64,000 nt of DNA, taken from positions 32,001 to 96,000 of IMG/VR virus record IMGVR_UViG_3300021255_000109. The stretch is one strand, 5' to 3'. The notes beneath the pieces were generated by a model. The model made no database searches. It was given only the letters and a program-made list of their open reading frames with translations, and was not told the origin of the DNA. This DNA is from a virus (Duplodnaviria > Caudoviricetes). The position numbers and the translations under genes were made by a program. This document shows, in pieces, positions 25,021 through 40,365 of the stretch (the first letter of the stretch is position 1; each line of letters starts with the position of its first letter).

Positions 25021-26577
25021 TCACTTAATGCAAGCGTAACGCTCAGTATTAAGCTTATCCATCATGAGTTCATATCCGGTCTTACCAGACATGATGGTCT
25101 CAAAGATAGAAGGAGAGAAGCCAGATACGAAGCTTACACGGCCCTGTCCGAGCATCGGAATGTTATTCTGGCGAGCATCAACATTCCAGAAAATCAGATG
25201 AGGCAGTTCAAGTCCGTAACGTGCCCACTTCTTAGCGATACCCTCCATCACAGTCTCGCAGTTGCGAGAATTGATGCTAGAAGTATAACGCCAACCAGAA
25301 GTTGCAGAGTCGAACTCCATATCAGAGATGATAAGGACATTCTTCGGGATATCTTCCTTCTTTACACCAGGACGAGTTGCAGTATCAAGTAGAAGGTCGA
25401 AGGTTGCTTCGATATTAGTGTTCTCACACAGATTAGTGCGATAAATTCTTTCGACCTTATCACAGAAATCTACTCCCTCAGTACGGATGAGCTGAGGACG
25501 AGAAGAGAAACTAATATAGTTATTGGCGAACGGGCCATTGTTATGCTCTGCGCAATACAGACCCAGAGAAATTGCTACGTTGATAGGAGCAGAAGCGCTA
25601 TCACCAGTCATAGAACCAGAGGTATCTACAACAGCAATACCATTGAAAGTTGCATTATTGAAATAATCGGTCAGATTATCCCAATACTTGTTAACCATCA
25701 GACGATTGGTATCGTACAGGTCAACATTGCTCTTATTATAATCATTAAAGCTATACCAACTTCTGTACTGCGGTTTCATGACCTTTACAGCCTCAGCTAC
25801 GCACTCATAAGGATACAGCGCCTTAGCGTTTACCTTAGTAGTGGCGTCCTGTGCGAACTCAGCGTAAGTCTTTACATTTTCGTTCTTCTGGCGCTCAATG
25901 TCATGACGAGCAAAAGCGTTCTTGTAAATCATTCCAGCACGAGAAGGAATCTTATCGAACTCAATCTCGTCCCAGCGATTCTCAGACATTAGTCTCTCCA
26001 GAACGTTGATGCGGGCGCGCAGATTAGAAAGAATCTTTCTATACTGGCGAGAAGTCATGCCCATATGCTGGCGAGTCAGTGCTCCCAGTCTGCGGCTTTC
26101 AGCACTTGAAGTGTTCTCGGACTTCAACCACTTAGCAAGTAAAGACGGAGTCTTGCAGCTGACATCAAGTGCAAGCTGATGAGTCATCAGCGCGAATGCG
26201 TCACCTTCCAGCGGAGTCCCTACGAACTCATACAAGTCATCCCAACGACCAAACTCAGGTACATGGATGAGATTGCGCTTTGCAGCATCTGCGTCCGCAT
26301 TAGCAAGCCAATGCATACACACACGGAAGAATCTACGCTCTCCCTGGCCTCCACGCACATCACGGATATAGAACAGGCACTTTAGTGCATACTCCGGGTT
26401 TTCCGCATATGCGTTCTTAAAGAGGTTAATTACATCTGCGTCACTGCGATTACGATAAGCTGCGCCCATCGCAAACATATCCAGTAAATCAGAACGAGTA
26501 GTCTTATGGGTCACACCACCATTCTCAGTGAGAGTGAAGTTAGTAGCATCATTCAGACCGGACATAAAAGTATTCAT
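25021..26577 (-). CDS. DUF2828-family helical + vWA protein (Ro60/TROVE-like architecture)
   Basis: TENG, RDVRGGQGERRFF, GRWDDL, AKWLKSE, vWA DTSGSM, SDMEFD, FWNV, SGFS. Confidence 0.85.
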   Translation of the reverse strand: MNTFMSGLNDATNFTLTENGGVTHKTTRSDLLDMFAMGAAYRNRSDADVINLFKNAYAENPEYALKCLFYIRDVRGGQGERRFFRVCMHWLANADADAAKRNLIHVPEFGRWDDLYEFVGTPLEGDAFALMTHQLALDVSCKTPSLLAKWLKSENTSSAESRRLGALTRQHMGMTSRQYRKILSNLRARINVLERLMSENRWDEIEFDKIPSRAGMIYKNAFARHDIERQKNENVKTYAEFAQDATTKVNAKALYPYECVAEAVKVMKPQYRSWYSFNDYNKSNVDLYDTNRLMVNKYWDNLTDYFNNATFNGIAVVDTSGSMTGDSASAPINVAISLGLYCAEHNNGPFANNYISFSSRPQLIRTEGVDFCDKVERIYRTNLCENTNIEATFDLLLDTATRPGVKKEDIPKNVLIISDMEFDSATSGWRYTSSINSRNCETVMEGIAKKWARYGLELPHLIFWNVDARQNNIPMLGQGRVSFVSGFSPSIFETIMSGKTGYELMMDKLNTERYACIK

Positions 26578-28854: not shown

Positions 28855-28961
28855 CAAGACGGCTTTTTAGTGCTGGAATCGAACCAGCTTAGATTGTTTT
28901 ACAGACAATGTGCGAACCATACGCTTAATATTCTAAAAAGAATGATTGCTGTATCCGCCTT
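28855..28961 (-). ncRNA. Element E2 enclosing a degenerate tRNA-Tyr(GTA)-like module
   Basis: AAGGCGG-ATACAGCAA ... ATTGT-CTGTAAA-ACAAT ... GCTGG-TTCGATT-CCAGC ... CCGTCTTG. Confidence 0.7.
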
Positions 28962-29228: not shown

Positions 29229-29316
29229 CGGGGGTATTGGGATTCGAACCCAAACCGAGGCCCTCAGAAGGCTGGAGTTTTAGAGACTCCTGTGCTGACC
29301 GTTACACTATACCCCT
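29229..29316 (-). tRNA. Amber suppressor tRNA (anticodon CTA), probably Gln
   Basis: GGAGT-CTCTAAA-ACTCC; A1/C72 mismatch, G2-C71, G3-C70, G73; ~20-nt variable region. Confidence 0.9.
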
Positions 29317-30506: not shown

Positions 30507-30707
30507 TTAATTATAACATTCTTTTGTGAAAAAACAATACATAACGTCTACATTATATTTATTTTTTGCTAAAATTGCATTAACTAATTTATATCCTTGC
30601 TCACCCATTTGAGTTAAAGTATTAGGTAAAACATCTGTTGCATAGTTACTGATTACTACAACTGTATTATCATATATTACTTCTTTTTTATTCATGAATT
30701 TCCTCAT
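30507..30707 (-). CDS. Small hypothetical protein
   Basis: L..MG.QGY.LV....Y.FF.K pattern. Confidence 0.55.
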   Translation of the reverse strand: MRKFMNKKEVIYDNTVVVISNYATDVLPNTLTQMGEQGYKLVNAILAKNKYNVDVMYCFFTKECYN

Positions 30708-30709
30708 AG

Positions 30710-31008
30710 TGGACCTGAGGGGAGTCGAACCCCTGTCCGAAATTTATACTTACTATAATTGTTTACGCTGTTTTTTTAAATTTGCTCCACCATCTTATTT
30801 TTAGTGCTAAGAATAAGAAAACTTAAAGTGACAGTTGTTTTCGATCCTCAACAGTTACTACTGACATCTTACTGTGTTTTGGAGGCTGAGCCAAATCAGG
30901 CTGCCATTTGATATTGATATCTTGCGTTTATATTTAGATTTTAGTGATTACGTCACTACACGAGCGCAATTATAATTTTCTAAACCCCGTCGAAACCATT
31001 ACAAGCCC
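30710..31008 (-). ncRNA. ssrA: tmRNA
   Basis: 5' GGGCTTGTAATGGTTTCGACGGGG, 3' GACAGGGGTTCGACTCCCCTCAGGTCCA; resume ATAAAC-GCA; tag (A)ARYQYQMAA-TGA. Confidence 0.9.
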
Positions 31009-31674: not shown

Positions 31675-31691
31675 ATGTAACATAAAAAAAT

Positions 31692-32312
31692 GAATTTGAA
31701 AAAATGTGTGAACCTTCGCTCTACATCCTATATTTCTCGTTTATTAGACTACTGAGGAGATAAGTCTGAGCCTAAGACCCGTCGGTCTTAAACTTCTTAC
31801 CCCACCCGTTTTCCACGGGCACAGGTTCTGCACCTTTAATCTCAGAAGGGATTGCTTACCCTCAACTTTCACCCACCATTCAGATATTTTTATAATAATG
31901 ACCTCAACATTATTCATTCATTATAAATAGAAATTAAAAAGTCTTTGCCTTGGGCTACTTGTGCGTTGACCTTGTCTTATAGTCTTATTACTAAGACATC
32001 ATGGCAAACTTCCTTATTAGCATTTCCTTGGTTTGTGCCAGGCGGCCAGCCTAACACCTAACAAGGATTATTCTCCCACTGGGAGCGTCTATTGCGGAAG
32101 CGACAAGACACCGTCCTAACTTGAGAAATATATTTTGCGCTAACTACCCCCGACACCTTACGTTCGTAAGGTATCATTCTCTTGTCACCAAGAGAATGAT
32201 TCATCTTCATCCTGGCTATCGTCAGGGTAGATATAGTCGACACCTAAGTGTGGTAGTTACCTCAGCACAATGGTATTTGCTCTGCACTGAGTTACACATT
32301 TTTTCAAAGTTC
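31692..32312 (-). ncRNA. Large structured ncRNA, ROOL-like (~620 nt)
   Basis: Terminal pairing TTTGAAAAAATGTGT/ACACATTTTTTCAAA, many hairpins, segments CAAGTAGCCCAA, ATCTGAATGGTGGGTGAAAG, GCTCAGACTTATCTCC recalled as ROOL-like; tRNA-cluster context. Confidence 0.65.
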
Positions 32313-32530
32313 AATAGGAATCAGTCAAAATCAGCATCGCCACGAGAAGGCTTCCTATATGATGCCATGCGGTTTTGAGGTTAACCGTAAACCTTGATAG
32401 TGTGGCTCTCGCCCAAAGGAATACCCGGCCGCCGCACTCCACTCTTTGAATGATGAACTCTTCTAATCCTACATCCTATCATATGTCTATTGGACTTACA
32501 TACAATTTCTAACTGTAAAGCCGAGACAAA

Positions 32531-32611: not shown

Positions 32612-32734
32612 CAAGGCTGCTTACTTTTTGGAGTTATTAATCTTCCAATTGATTTACAATTGCTAAGCAAAAGACAGGACTCGAACCTGCAACGCATAAC
32701 TTGGAATAAAGCTACTATTTGCTGTCACAGCCTT
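32612..32734 (-). ncRNA. Element E3: YrlA-topology permuted tRNA mimic
   Basis: AAGGCTG-TGACAGCAA ... GTTAT, T-arm GCAGG-TTCGAGT-CCTGT, looped acceptor, D-arm AATC-AATTGGAA-GATT, ATAAC ... CAGCCTTG. Confidence 0.72.
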
Positions 32735-32765: not shown

Positions 32766-32887
32766 CAAGACACTTTAGAAAAATGATTATCAGTCATTCG
32801 CGTCAACCATTGCGCCAATTTGCCTAAGGTGGCAAATATCGGATTTGAACCGATACTCTCTAAAAAGAGATTTGCTGTATGTGTCTT
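32766..32887 (-). ncRNA. Element E4: circularly permuted tRNA-Ile(GAT)-like module
   Basis: AAGACAC-ATACAGCAA ... T-arm, ATTTGCC-ACCTTA-GGCAAAT, D-arm, AATGA-CTGATAA-TCATT ... GTGTCTTG. Confidence 0.78.
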
Positions 32888-33438: not shown

Positions 33439-33995
33439 TAGGAGAGATGGGAATCGAACCCATGACCTCAGGTTTGATTCCAAGATGTTATTCATTAATT
33501 ATTTTATTCACCACCTTTTCTAATTCATATTCAGTAGCAAATGTAATTCCTCTAATTTGTCCATTCTTAGGCGGAATAAATCTTAATCTTTTTATCCCAG
33601 AACTACAACATTCATCTACTGGAATTAAATAAGTTTTACCTTCATAAGAAGTCATAAAATAATCAATTTGTTCTTTTGTATAGGCATGTTTTACAAACTT
33701 TCCATTTCTCGTAGTTTTATTTGCGGTATTAAATTCTATATATCCGTTGTCTATATGTGAAGTATTAGCTGTTTTAACTTGAATTTTATAAAATTTATTA
33801 TTTATTTCAACTACGAAATCATAACGTTCACAATCTCCATATGGAGTTAAAACATTATAACCTAATTTTAAAAATGATAACATACATTCTACTTCTGTAA
33901 TATTACCTTTTTGTTTTGACATTAACATATTGTTAATAATCAATGAATAATTCTTTGAATCAGACCTGCACTCTAACCTTCTGAGCTACTCTCCT
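33439..33995 (-). tRNA. tRNA-Ile(GAT) split by a 483-nt insertion (exons 33959-33995 and 33439-33475)
   Basis: 5' half ends CAGGT-CT-GAT, 3' half begins AA-ACCTG; perfect acceptor AGGAGAG/CTCTCCT, A73. Confidence 0.85.
33488..33928 (-). CDS. PD-(D/E)XK homing-type endonuclease (I-Ssp6803I-like family) inside tRNA-Ile
   Basis: KG..TE, P.GD..RYD, KIQVKT, Y...IDYF, YLIP. Confidence 0.85.
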   Translation of the reverse strand: MLMSKQKGNITEVECMLSFLKLGYNVLTPYGDCERYDFVVEINNKFYKIQVKTANTSHIDNGYIEFNTANKTTRNGKFVKHAYTKEQIDYFMTSYEGKTYLIPVDECCSSGIKRLRFIPPKNGQIRGITFATEYELEKVVNKIINE

Positions 33996-34006
33996 ATATT
34001 TATATC

Positions 34007-34087
34007 CAAGGCACTTAAAGTGAGCACATTTGTATAAGTAAAAGTTATATAATTTGCATCCTTGTAAATATTTGCTGTATGTGCCTT
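34007..34087 (-). ncRNA. Element E5
   Basis: AAGGCAC-ATACAGCAA ... GTGCCTTG directly after a promoter. Confidence 0.65.
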
Positions 34088-34272
34088 AAATTTCTTATTT
34101 CTTTATCTTACTAATTATATCAAAATTTTTCTAAAAAATCAACTTGCGGGTACTTTCCGCGACAGCCGCTTAACCAATTCGACTTTCTTAGCTTTCACTA
34201 ATGAGAACCTCACGCATTGTCGGTCTTGTCCTCCCTATCGTTAGGCTTCCACTTGCCGCAAGTTGATTTTAG

Positions 34273-34391
34273 TGGGGGACAGAGGACTCGAACCTCCAAA
34301 CACCGGCTCCCTAAGCTTTGTAAAAATTGCTGACACGGTTTTTATTCAAGACCAGACATAACGGCGGCTTTTCCTATTTGCCTAATCCCCC
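34273..34391 (-). ncRNA. Element E6: tRNA-like RNA with the permuted stem/CAGCAA motif in place of the anticodon loop
   Basis: Acceptor GGGGGA/TCCCCC, D- and T-arms intact; anticodon arm holds GGTCTTG-AATA-AAAACC-GTGTCAGCAA. Confidence 0.7.
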
Positions 34392-34394
34392 AAA

Positions 34395-34466
34395 TACCGG
34401 ATCTCGGATTCGAACCGAGAAAACAACCTTCGTAGGGTCGCAGTTTATCCATTAGCTTAATCCGGC
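34395..34466 (-). tRNA. tRNA-Arg(ACG)
   Basis: Cloverleaf; loop CTACGAA. Confidence 0.87.
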
Positions 34467-34658
34467 TTATGCGCGCTCGATTGGCGTCAAGCGCACGACT
34501 TCATATGCGCCAACATATGAAGGTTTTGGTTTAATATCGGGAAAACCACGACACGCCTCAAGAGCAATGCCAAAACCCGCAAGCACTTACCTCTTAATCC
34601 GTCTATTGCCTCGCTTCTCATCTTCGAGCATAAGCTACTACAATCGCTTTTAAGAGAA

Positions 34659-38148: not shown

Positions 38149-38504
38149 TAAAAAATATTGTAGGTTACAACAACCTGTCAAAGTACCTTAAAGGCTTCAT
38201 AACAAAATAGTACAATTTCTACAGTGAGTAACCTACAATATTAACCCCTCTGCGTTTACACTGGCTTGGGAACAGTCCATTGGGCCGCATTAGTTTTTAA
38301 TTTTAAGTAAGGAGTAAAAAGAAGATTTATTGTCCCCGTATTATTTGACAATAAATAGAGATAAAAAACTCTCCTTAACATACAGTTTTGTTGTTTCTAA
38401 ATCTGGCACTATATAGAAAGGATGGCACCTTACAGCCTAACCGCCAATTATTTTTGATTAGGTTTTCCAGTAGTAAGGCTTAATGTATAGTGTCAATTTA
38501 AAAA

Positions 38505-38627
38505 CAAGTCGCTTCGTTTTTTGGTGTACAAAATGGGACTCGAACCCACAATTTTTAAATCCTAAATTTAACGCCATTCCTATTTGGCTATTCGTACGAT
38601 TAACGTAACATTTGCTGTATGCGACTT
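38505..38627 (-). ncRNA. Element E7 enclosing a complete tRNA-Leu(TAG)-like gene with CCA (38522-38597)
   Basis: AAGTCGC-ATACAGCAA ... cloverleaf with TTAAA-TTTAGGA-TTTAA ... ACCA ... GCGACTTG. Confidence 0.75.
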
Positions 38628-38925: not shown

Positions 38926-38991
38926 CAAGACGAATTATAACAAGTTTTGTTTACCGACACAAATTGTTTTAAAAATTGCAGAAATCGTCTT
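38926..38991 (-). ncRNA. Element E8
   Basis: AAGACGA-TTTCTGCAA ... TCGTCTTG directly after a promoter. Confidence 0.55.
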
Positions 38992-39038: not shown

Positions 39039-39114
39039 CCAACCATATGGGAATCGAACCCATCATCCTTCTGCCTTGCGTGACAGTGCTTGCCTCCTTG
39101 CATGCCCATGATTA
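39039..39114 (-). pseudogene. Degenerate tRNA-like sequence (Asp-like)
   Basis: Good T-arm ATGGG-TTCGATT-CCCAT, weak acceptor, CTGTCAC loop, broken stems. Confidence 0.4.
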
Positions 39115-39381
39115 GAGGGATCTGCGCATATCCCTGTTTTGGTTTGCTTCAGTAGGGTTTCCTCCCCTCCCACTCCATTTTTATACCGAGCTGAGAAAAC
39201 ACGGTCGAGAACTTCTCGTAATAAGGTACCATCATTTGTTACAACTGTCAATCTTTCATATGGTGCTATCTACTTAACTGGCAGCCCGCATTGTACTTTT
39301 GCGTAACAATTTATAACTCCCAAATTGTTTCTAACGTCTGCTTATGTCCAACGGATAGCCAGCCGTGCTTGAAGCAGCAAA

Positions 39382-39753: not shown

Positions 39754-39819
39754 CAAGACATTTTAGTTTTTCCCAAATTGGATGGCTGAGATAACAAACT
39801 TGTTTGCTGCAAATGTCTT
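39754..39819 (-). ncRNA. Element E9
   Basis: AAGACAT-TTGCAGCAA ... ATGTCTTG directly after a promoter. Confidence 0.6.
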
Positions 39820-40310: not shown

Positions 40311-40365
40311 AAATTGACCTACCCTGGTACGCATTGTTAAGAGGCGTGATAGGTACTGATATAAT

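Follow-up and report, generated by a model that had tools for sequence, protein, structure and literature searches.

The window analysed here, a 64,000-nt stretch of DNA, covers bases 32001-96000 of an IMG/VR phage genome (IMGVR_UViG_3300021255_000109; Caudoviricetes), which is complete at 180,778 bp and bears terminal repeats. Nearly all genes of the window lie on the minus strand, as do all of the window features given below by their coordinates. An array of 33 tRNAs, including a CUA suppressor, extends between ~26.9 and 48.4 kb, and at its downstream end lies a gene (25021-26577) encoding a protein of 518 amino acids composed of the Pfam families DUF2828 and DUF7788, the latter a vWA domain. 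Situated 7.7 kb upstream of this gene, on the same strand, is E6 (34273-34391), a 119-nt RNA with the overall shape of a tRNA. Because a tRNA-Arg(ACG) found by ARAGORN and Rfam (34395-34466) is placed only 3 nt upstream, E6 lies inside the tRNA array. It is best explained as a member of a family of RNAs that share a small module containing CAGCAA, here termed the handle, and that accompany the Ro60-like protein (DUF2828 plus vWA) of the phage.

The body of E6 follows the normal order of a tRNA, with the handle taking the place of the anticodon loop, as the initial annotation had proposed from the sequence; the acceptor, D and T arms can all be read directly, and a covariance model and a structural alignment of homologues, described below, agree with this reading. 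The 5′ strand of the acceptor stem, GGGGGAU (34385-34391), forms 7 bp with GUCCCCC (34274-34280) that are 100% paired in the 14 homologous sequences, and a discriminator A is read at 34273. The D arm (34366-34382) consists of an 11-nt loop with GG held between GGC and GCC, a 3-bp stem that appears as a helix in the alignment, while the T arm (34281-34297), GGAGG-UUCGAGU-CCUCU, has five pairs (100% paired) and the variable loop is the 5-nt UGUUU. Of the anticodon stem there remains a remnant of three pairs, also 100% paired, between CCG (34362-34364) and CGG (34303-34305). An insert opens from this 3-bp stem. It does replace the anticodon loop, as first described, and at 56 nt is longer than the approximately 50 nt originally estimated. 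The two halves of the handle motif stand within it in the reverse order that had been claimed, GGUCUUG-AAUA-AAAACC-GUGUCAGCAA, with exact matches at 34337-34353 and 34327-34336. The former is the closed hairpin GGUCUU-GAAUA-AAAACC, which forms the handle helix P1 (six pairs, 93% paired) and is the counterpart of the terminal stem of ordinary handle modules; the latter is the linker followed by CAGCAA (GUGU-CAGCAA). A second hairpin, P2 (34314-34331; five pairs, 88% paired), reads AGC..GCU in the window and AGCAA..UUGCU in relatives.

Measured against the tRNA family of Rfam (RF00005), E6-type RNAs possess the 7-bp acceptor stem, a D arm with GG, a T loop of the UUCGA type and the 15:48 pair, the helices concerned being 95-100% paired, but E6 has neither the 5-bp anticodon stem with its 7-nt loop nor recognition by tRNA finders. 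Indeed, E6 is called by neither ARAGORN nor the RF00005 model, and no Rfam family matches it at E ≤ 10. The single-sequence fold of E6 is no better than those of its shuffles (z = -0.55) and is thus uninformative, so that support for the structure comes from comparison.

For this comparison, 80 related phage loci were gathered by way of the DUF2828 protein; in several, blastn revealed relatives of E6 on the upstream side of the gene. A covariance model (R1) built from six sequences scores 14 distinct sequences, namely E6 itself (102.1 bits, over model positions 1-117) and 13 others at 57-126 bits, with ordinary tRNAs at 48 bits or less. In the alignment of these 14 sequences (A7), pairing extends to 96% of cells and compensatory changes are seen at 19 of the 29 pairs; this is matched by none of 500 shuffles, and slid controls pair to only 38-48%. 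The compensatory pairs are distributed over the acceptor stem (6/7), D arm (2/3), anticodon-stem remnant (3/3) and T arm (3/5), as well as P1 (GGUCUU..AAGACC; 4/6) and P2 (AGCAA..UUGCU), where just one pair in five qualifies (AU in six, UA in three) because the remaining ones are invariant. Additionally, the tertiary (Levitt) pair 15:48 of tRNA covaries among the homologues (A:U in eight, G:C in five and another combination in one), which argues for a genuine L-shaped fold of E6-type RNAs. The sequence C[AU]GCAA is kept in nearly all of the homologues, and the first loop base of the closed P1 is G in the E6-type elements read.

The same topology is found on other tRNA bodies. A structural scan used together with the covariance model identified more such elements, some of them in tandem, and 25 have been aligned in total. 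Two are held by the distant, T4-like Aeromonas phage PX29, one of which is annotated in GenBank as a two-piece tRNA-Leu. The exact E6-type pattern matches only 11 IMG/VR contigs, of which at least 10 correspond to DUF2828 contigs already in the sample. A blastn search of the E6 region against named phages gave no match, and no E6-type element occurs in the fetched DUF2828 surroundings of phages PBC2, LP-083-2, Faith1 and phiSHEF13. Two other DUF2828 phages carry tandem arrays (L231:10451-10932 and L266:5819-6214) with three to four elements, 105-130 nt long, that resemble normal-order tRNA bodies with an inside-out handle; four elements of these arrays score 42-66 bits, and two more matches in L231 score 26-30 bits. 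Adjoining both E6-type elements of PX29 is a 118-nt "tRNA-OTHER" (L321:6651-6768) with a 7-bp acceptor and two successive T-arm-like hairpins, in which ..GGUUCGAAUCC.. occurs twice.

In its ordinary form, the handle is defined by a helix of 6-8 bp, a linker of 2-4 nt and C[AUG]GCAA on the 5′ strand, and a G placed directly after the 3′ strand. Every one of these elements is present in E6 in circularly permuted form, the trailing G being the first loop base. A strict pattern for the ordinary order, AAG-stem-N-C[ATG]GCAA-cargo-stem′-CTTG, occurs seven times on the minus strand of the window and not at all on the plus strand, where dinucleotide shuffles yield 0.59 copies on average and never more than 4; three further, looser copies were read. 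A loose DNA pattern for the handle was also tried and dropped, as its more than 116 matches were mostly due to chance. The cargo enclosed by the modules is varied. A scan for them located ordinary-order handles at 28855-28961 and at 34007-34087, the latter with a 57-nt cargo ~190 nt downstream of E6, a handle around a complete tRNA-like gene that includes its own CCA (38505-38627), and two with short cargo, one just past a promoter-like site (38926-38991) and the other before a small open reading frame (39754-39819). Some copies carry short hairpins behind promoters.

Two further modules found by the scan enclose permuted tRNA-like RNAs. In E3 (32612-32734), an ordinary-order handle surrounds a core with the topology of YrlA, a Y RNA discussed below, and the elements succeed one another as handle 5′ strand, CAGCAA, T arm, closed acceptor, D arm and handle 3′ strand. 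E2 (32766-32887), which is conserved in relatives, includes an anticodon arm in addition: its handle ends enclose a T arm, a closed acceptor (AUUUGCC-ACCUUA-GGCAAAU), a D arm and an anticodon-like arm with the loop CUGAUAA. Its conservation is accompanied by covariation in four related phages, and if RNase P cuts the closed acceptor, E2 could become a two-piece molecule resembling tRNA-Ile.

Mapped onto this arrangement, E6 has a short loop that connects the 3′ strand and its trailing G to the 5′ strand with linker and CAGCAA, and the acceptor ends are open. The description of E6 as a circular permutation of E3 is upheld, E3 having the YrlA order and a terminal stem, and E6 an open acceptor and a loop-closed helix. 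The initial annotation had further argued that the handle is a folded module independent of transcript ends and no artefact of promoter leaders, and at the level of sequence this also stands, as the handle of E6-type elements occurs inside a tRNA body, well away from the ends of a transcript, P1 covaries, and the topology recurs in the Aeromonas phage. These observations support the view of the handle as an autonomous folded module, likely to serve in docking and to be read on its helix and bulge.

The proposed partner of the handle is the DUF2828 protein. Its structure was modelled by AlphaFold from 25 relatives (pLDDT 75; pTM 0.72), and the model presents a ring of helical repeats followed by a C-terminal vWA domain. 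When the model was compared to the PDB using Foldseek, the 12 best matches were all Ro60/TROVE structures (E of 1e-6 to 7e-4; TM 0.41-0.55; ~540-600 alignment columns). Ro60/TROVE proteins were the only full-length matches, namely Xenopus Ro, Deinococcus Rsr, human Ro60 and the Ro60 of Thermus phage phiLo, with isolated vWA domains coming next. By this structural comparison, the DUF2828 protein is predicted to have a Ro60 fold. The nearest named clusters according to a protein language model (ESM Atlas) are likewise TROVE and vWA_Ro60. Existing names point in a similar direction, with PHROG 850 called "RNA-binding protein" and mycobacteriophage homologues of the DUF2828 protein labelled "Ro-like RNA binding protein" in GenBank. 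A large protein search returned close DUF2828 relatives only, with no bridge to TROVE.

Handle RNAs and DUF2828 genes are found together in both directions of search. Among 81 related loci, 216 strict modules lie on the strand of the DUF2828 gene and 14 on the other, and nearly all of them are within the 10 kb on its upstream side. Loci L003-L118, with 53 modules, do not make a clean control, since they were chosen with a pattern holding part of the motif; the comparison is based instead on strand asymmetry and shuffles. Of eight distant phages fetched by way of the protein (29-40% identity), seven have two to seven tandem, same-strand modules immediately adjacent to the gene for DUF2828: Bacillus PBC2, Listeria LP-083-2, Enterococcus phiSHEF13, Mycobacterium Faith1, Escherichia EC6, Campylobacter CPX and Staphylococcus S-CoN_Ph7. 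The letters of the stem vary by lineage (AAG..CUUG, AGG..CCUG, UGG..CCAG and AGACC..GGUCUG), but the linker with CAGCAA and the trailing G are constant. Going by the product names annotated for the flanking genes, these seven loci have no neighbour other than DUF2828 in common. In the reverse test, a pattern drawn from the RNA letters only matches 88 IMG/VR stretches; a DUF2828 homologue is encoded by 29 of the 32 larger contigs and by all 16 of those with at least 90% completeness. Across 50,697 phage records, DUF2828 is present in 705. As the contigs are related to one another by phylogeny, the association of handle and DUF2828 is one of strong linkage, short of proof.

Among the closest known parallels is YrlA of bacteria and phages, which is composed of an Rsr-binding stem with GNCGAAN0-1G near the 5′ end and a permuted tRNA-like domain (Chen et al. 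2014; PMC4201824). In M. smegmatis, whose YrlA has an acceptor stem of 7 bp, RNase P cleaves the RNA and CCA is added to it in vivo as part of its complex with Rsr (PMC4201824). Both YrlA and E6 have two modules, a bulged stem for docking of a protein (putative in E6) and a tRNA-like domain of T arm, D arm and acceptor; in both, the docking stem extends from the position of the anticodon stem, and the surroundings of both include RNA-repair genes and a gene for a protein of Ro60 fold, a predicted one in the case of E6. Once opened by RNase P, M. smegmatis YrlA takes the open-acceptor form that E6 has from the start. Despite these similarities, YrlA is permuted, with a closed acceptor and its termini in the handle, whereas E6 follows the normal order of acceptor, D arm, handle, T arm and acceptor, with a genomically open acceptor and a closed handle. 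The permuted order of YrlA is thus absent from E6 and present in E3. The Rfam family RF02553, with a gathering score of 69 bits, does not match E6 at E ≤ 10 and gives E3 a weak 26.4 bits. The proteins differ as well, as the partner of YrlA is a TROVE protein and the protein linked to the handle belongs to Pfam DUF2828/DUF7788.

The Ro60 of Thermus phage phiLo has as ligands two Y-like RNAs, Yrl1 and Yrl2, whose genes adjoin its own, and it binds and recruits the host PNPase (PMC12135203; PDB 9KOP, 9L5Y). This protein, which is among the top structural matches of the window protein, is likewise a phage Ro60-fold ring with adjacent partner RNAs. The phiLo RNAs, however, are of a stem-bulge-stem form with the CGAA motif and lack a full tRNA body, and the phiLo protein is a recognisable TROVE member. 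In the Felixounavirus Bas63, the Ro60-like gp130 counters the Ppl defence and is encoded directly upstream of a tRNA stretch; its authors only guessed that some of the "tRNAs" were Y RNAs, and identified no partner RNA (bioRxiv 10.1101/2024.10.10.617714). The DUF2828 gene of EC6, also in a Felixounavirus setting, has the same placement upstream of the tRNA stretch as gp130, a comparison made by position. A putative counter-defence role in the phage of the window is a lead.

Two other kinds of RNA share aspects of this architecture. Natural circular permutations of transfer-messenger RNA (tmRNA) exist. Both tmRNA, including its two-piece permuted forms, and E6 combine an acceptor/T-arm domain with a functional domain foreign to tRNA that replaces the anticodon arm, although E6 has none of the tag reading frame, pseudoknots or SmpB binding of tmRNA. 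The Class I RNAs of dictyostelid social amoebae have a short terminal stem that joins the ends, a conserved, unstructured 11-nt motif on its 5′ side and variable cargo (PMC7919456). This layout of terminal stem, motif and cargo is shared with handle RNAs as a matter of architecture. As described there, the Class I RNAs are eukaryotic, without a tRNA body, and have an RNA recognition motif (RRM) protein as their known binder (PMC7919456).

Together, the comparative evidence makes it probable that E6 is a non-decoding, Y-RNA-like mimic of tRNA belonging to a phage Ro60-fold DUF2828 system, with the closed handle docking the protein; for the binding itself, the case is inferred from gene linkage and from the Ro60 fold. 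Several observations weigh against this interpretation. The handle is a helix with C[AU]GCAA and lacks the GNCGAA/GGUCCGA motif contacted by true Ro60 (PMC4201824), and there is no CGAA in E6. On the protein side, Pfam TROVE (PF05731) matches neither the DUF2828 protein, which yields only DUF2828, DUF7788 and a weak VWA_2, nor anything else in the genome, and querying PDB chains with the protein sequence led to no Ro60 entry. Slight decay is seen in the window copy of E6, where P1 contains a C/A mismatch and the top of P2 two of the A/A type, and the three joining strands of the E6 junction, inspected by eye, have no consistent pairing across homologues. E6-type elements of the close family occur in only 13 of 44 related phage records and are therefore dispensable. 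Finally, the modules of the window are spread over ~20 kb of the tRNA array and unclustered at the DUF2828 gene, some of them in mRNA leaders, and the co-occurrence of handle and protein could in part reflect common phage ancestry.

The scattering of modules through the tRNA array, some of them right after promoters or before open reading frames, would also suit a different partner, such as a phage or host factor for RNA processing or stabilisation, or an RRM-type protein, that recognises the handle in place of DUF2828; E6 would still be a conserved tRNA-shaped RNA, and the Ro60-like protein a mere neighbour in an island devoted to tRNAs and RNA repair. The same island does encode an RNA ligase-like protein, relatives carry RtcB and other RNA ligases, and the Class I RNAs of social amoebae are reported to bind the RRM protein Rnp1A (PMC7919456). 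This explanation is a possible one, if rather less than likely, as DUF2828 alone, going by product names, recurs next to the modules in each of the seven distant lineages, each of the 16 near-complete genomes chosen by RNA pattern has DUF2828, and the predicted fold of the protein is shared with an RNA-binding ring already known, which has its partner RNAs encoded alongside.

Two other explanations would deny E6 a role as a tRNA-shaped RNA of this kind, and both are highly improbable. If E6 were an intron-bearing tRNA, removal of the 56-nt insert by splicing would restore a decoding tRNA, as might be supposed from its intact acceptor, D and T arms, its location in the tRNA array, the two-piece tRNA-Leu annotated in GenBank for the PX29 analogue and the fact that ARAGORN can be forced into a call when introns are allowed. 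These forced calls, however, are inconsistent, with the anticodon (Lys, Ser, Glu, Pro, Ala, Cys, Thr, His, Asn or Leu) and the placement of the intron changing in almost every homologue. The anticodon stem stops at 3 bp, beyond which mismatches are conserved throughout the homologues; therefore, no 5-bp stem with a 7-nt loop results once the insert is taken out. The insert is moreover far too short for a group I intron, matches no intron family of Rfam, and is itself conserved and covarying. The initial annotation had named splicing of the insert together with a motif unconserved in homologues as the outcome contrary to its proposal; what is found is a conserved motif and an insert whose removal yields no normal tRNA. 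That E6 might instead be a functionless, decaying tRNA pseudogene, which gained a fragment of a neighbouring module through recombination, has scarcely any probability either. The mismatches in P1 and P2 of the window copy, the many relatives without E6-type elements and the resemblance of the E6 tRNA body to the tRNA-Asn of the phage would fit such an origin, but every helix has compensatory changes over the 14 homologues, the 15:48 pair is maintained, and the architecture reappears with other tRNA bodies, in tandem and as far away as the T4-like Aeromonas phage.

Under the preferred explanation, a Y-RNA-like tRNA mimic, E6 would be transcribed within the tRNA array, 3 nt after the tRNA-Arg, and would be folded into the L-shape of a tRNA by its 7-bp acceptor, T arm, D arm and 15:48 pair. 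RNase P together with 3′-end and CCA enzymes could release and finish it in the manner of a tRNA. The 3-bp anticodon stem opens into the junction that bears the handle, with its helix of 6-7 bp, linker of 3-4 nt and CAGCAA; this helix is closed in E6 by a loop starting with G, whereas ordinary modules make the same helix from the two ends of the RNA. From the linkage and the fold, the handle may be expected to provide the docking site of the Ro60-like ring through helix and bulge, as Ro60 engages a Y RNA, with no need of free ends. The tRNA-like half, left exposed, might then, by analogy, act as a tether or decoy for enzymes that handle tRNA or degrade RNA, as proposed for YrlA. For Y RNAs this would be an undescribed topology, a single piece in normal tRNA order with an open acceptor and a closed handle. 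A more speculative extension, and on balance an unlikely one, is that E6-type RNAs are cut by RNase P, tailed with CCA and perhaps aminoacylated, and serve as one-piece adaptors between the Ro60-like ring and the tRNA-handling, translation or RNA-decay machinery of the host; alternatively, in a counter-defence similar to that of Bas63, they may be tRNA-shaped decoys against host defence nucleases.

The tRNA array contains several other structured RNAs. These include a ROOL RNA (31691-32315; 341 bits), a phage tmRNA with the tag ARYQYQMAA (30707-31008), an abiF RNA motif (40317-40353) and a putative twister-P1 ribozyme (38242-38296), whose match is sub-threshold but significant at 47.7 bits (gathering score 67.2; E = 6e-8). 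Right after E6 lies a 141-nt element (34132-34272) with a 15-bp closing stem (AUCAACUUGCGG.. / ..CCGCAAGUUGAU), a branched interior and then a U run. Its fold has a z-score of -3.1, with none of 200 shuffles folding as well, and the related loci hold no counterpart by blastn. Either a structured RNA or a terminator of unusual size may be present here. The 192-nt spacer between tRNA-Arg(UCU) and tRNA-Arg(ACG) (34467-34658) has several strong hairpins, with a fold z-score of just -1.5 and no homologues by blastn. At 33439-33995, tRNA-like halves flank an open reading frame for a PD-(D/E)XK endonuclease (33488-33943; PF11645, E = 6e-29). The CUA-anticodon tRNA of the array (29229-29316), an amber suppressor that ARAGORN labels "Pyl", has a long variable arm, and long open reading frames are still open under table 11. 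Following tRNA-Met, a GC-richer region of ~315 nt (39060-39375) without a long open reading frame ends in a T-arm-like hairpin (GAUGGGUUCGAUUCCCAU); it has no match in Rfam and may represent another large tRNA-linked RNA.

Ro60 and Y RNAs form a conserved RNA-surveillance particle. E6 would be part of a large branch of such systems with its own handle (CAGCAA), which was found neither in Rfam 15 nor in the literature searched, and its own protein family (DUF2828, with a predicted Ro60 fold). This branch is present in well-studied phages, including Felix O1-like, Listeria P100/A511-like, Campylobacter, staphylococcal and mycobacterial ones. If the more speculative extension is correct, the several topologies in which handle and tRNA are combined, with the handle around whole tRNAs, around permuted tRNAs and inside tRNAs, would amount to a set of modules by which tRNA shapes are displayed on a Ro60-like platform. 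E6 serves as a natural experiment, in which the handle, judged by its conservation, still works when it is loop-closed and buried in a normal tRNA; the protein would therefore have to read helix and bulge, and not the ends of the RNA. As a one-piece, open-acceptor mimic of tRNA that could be CCA-tailed, E6 may provide an entry to binding, structural and counter-defence work in tractable phages.
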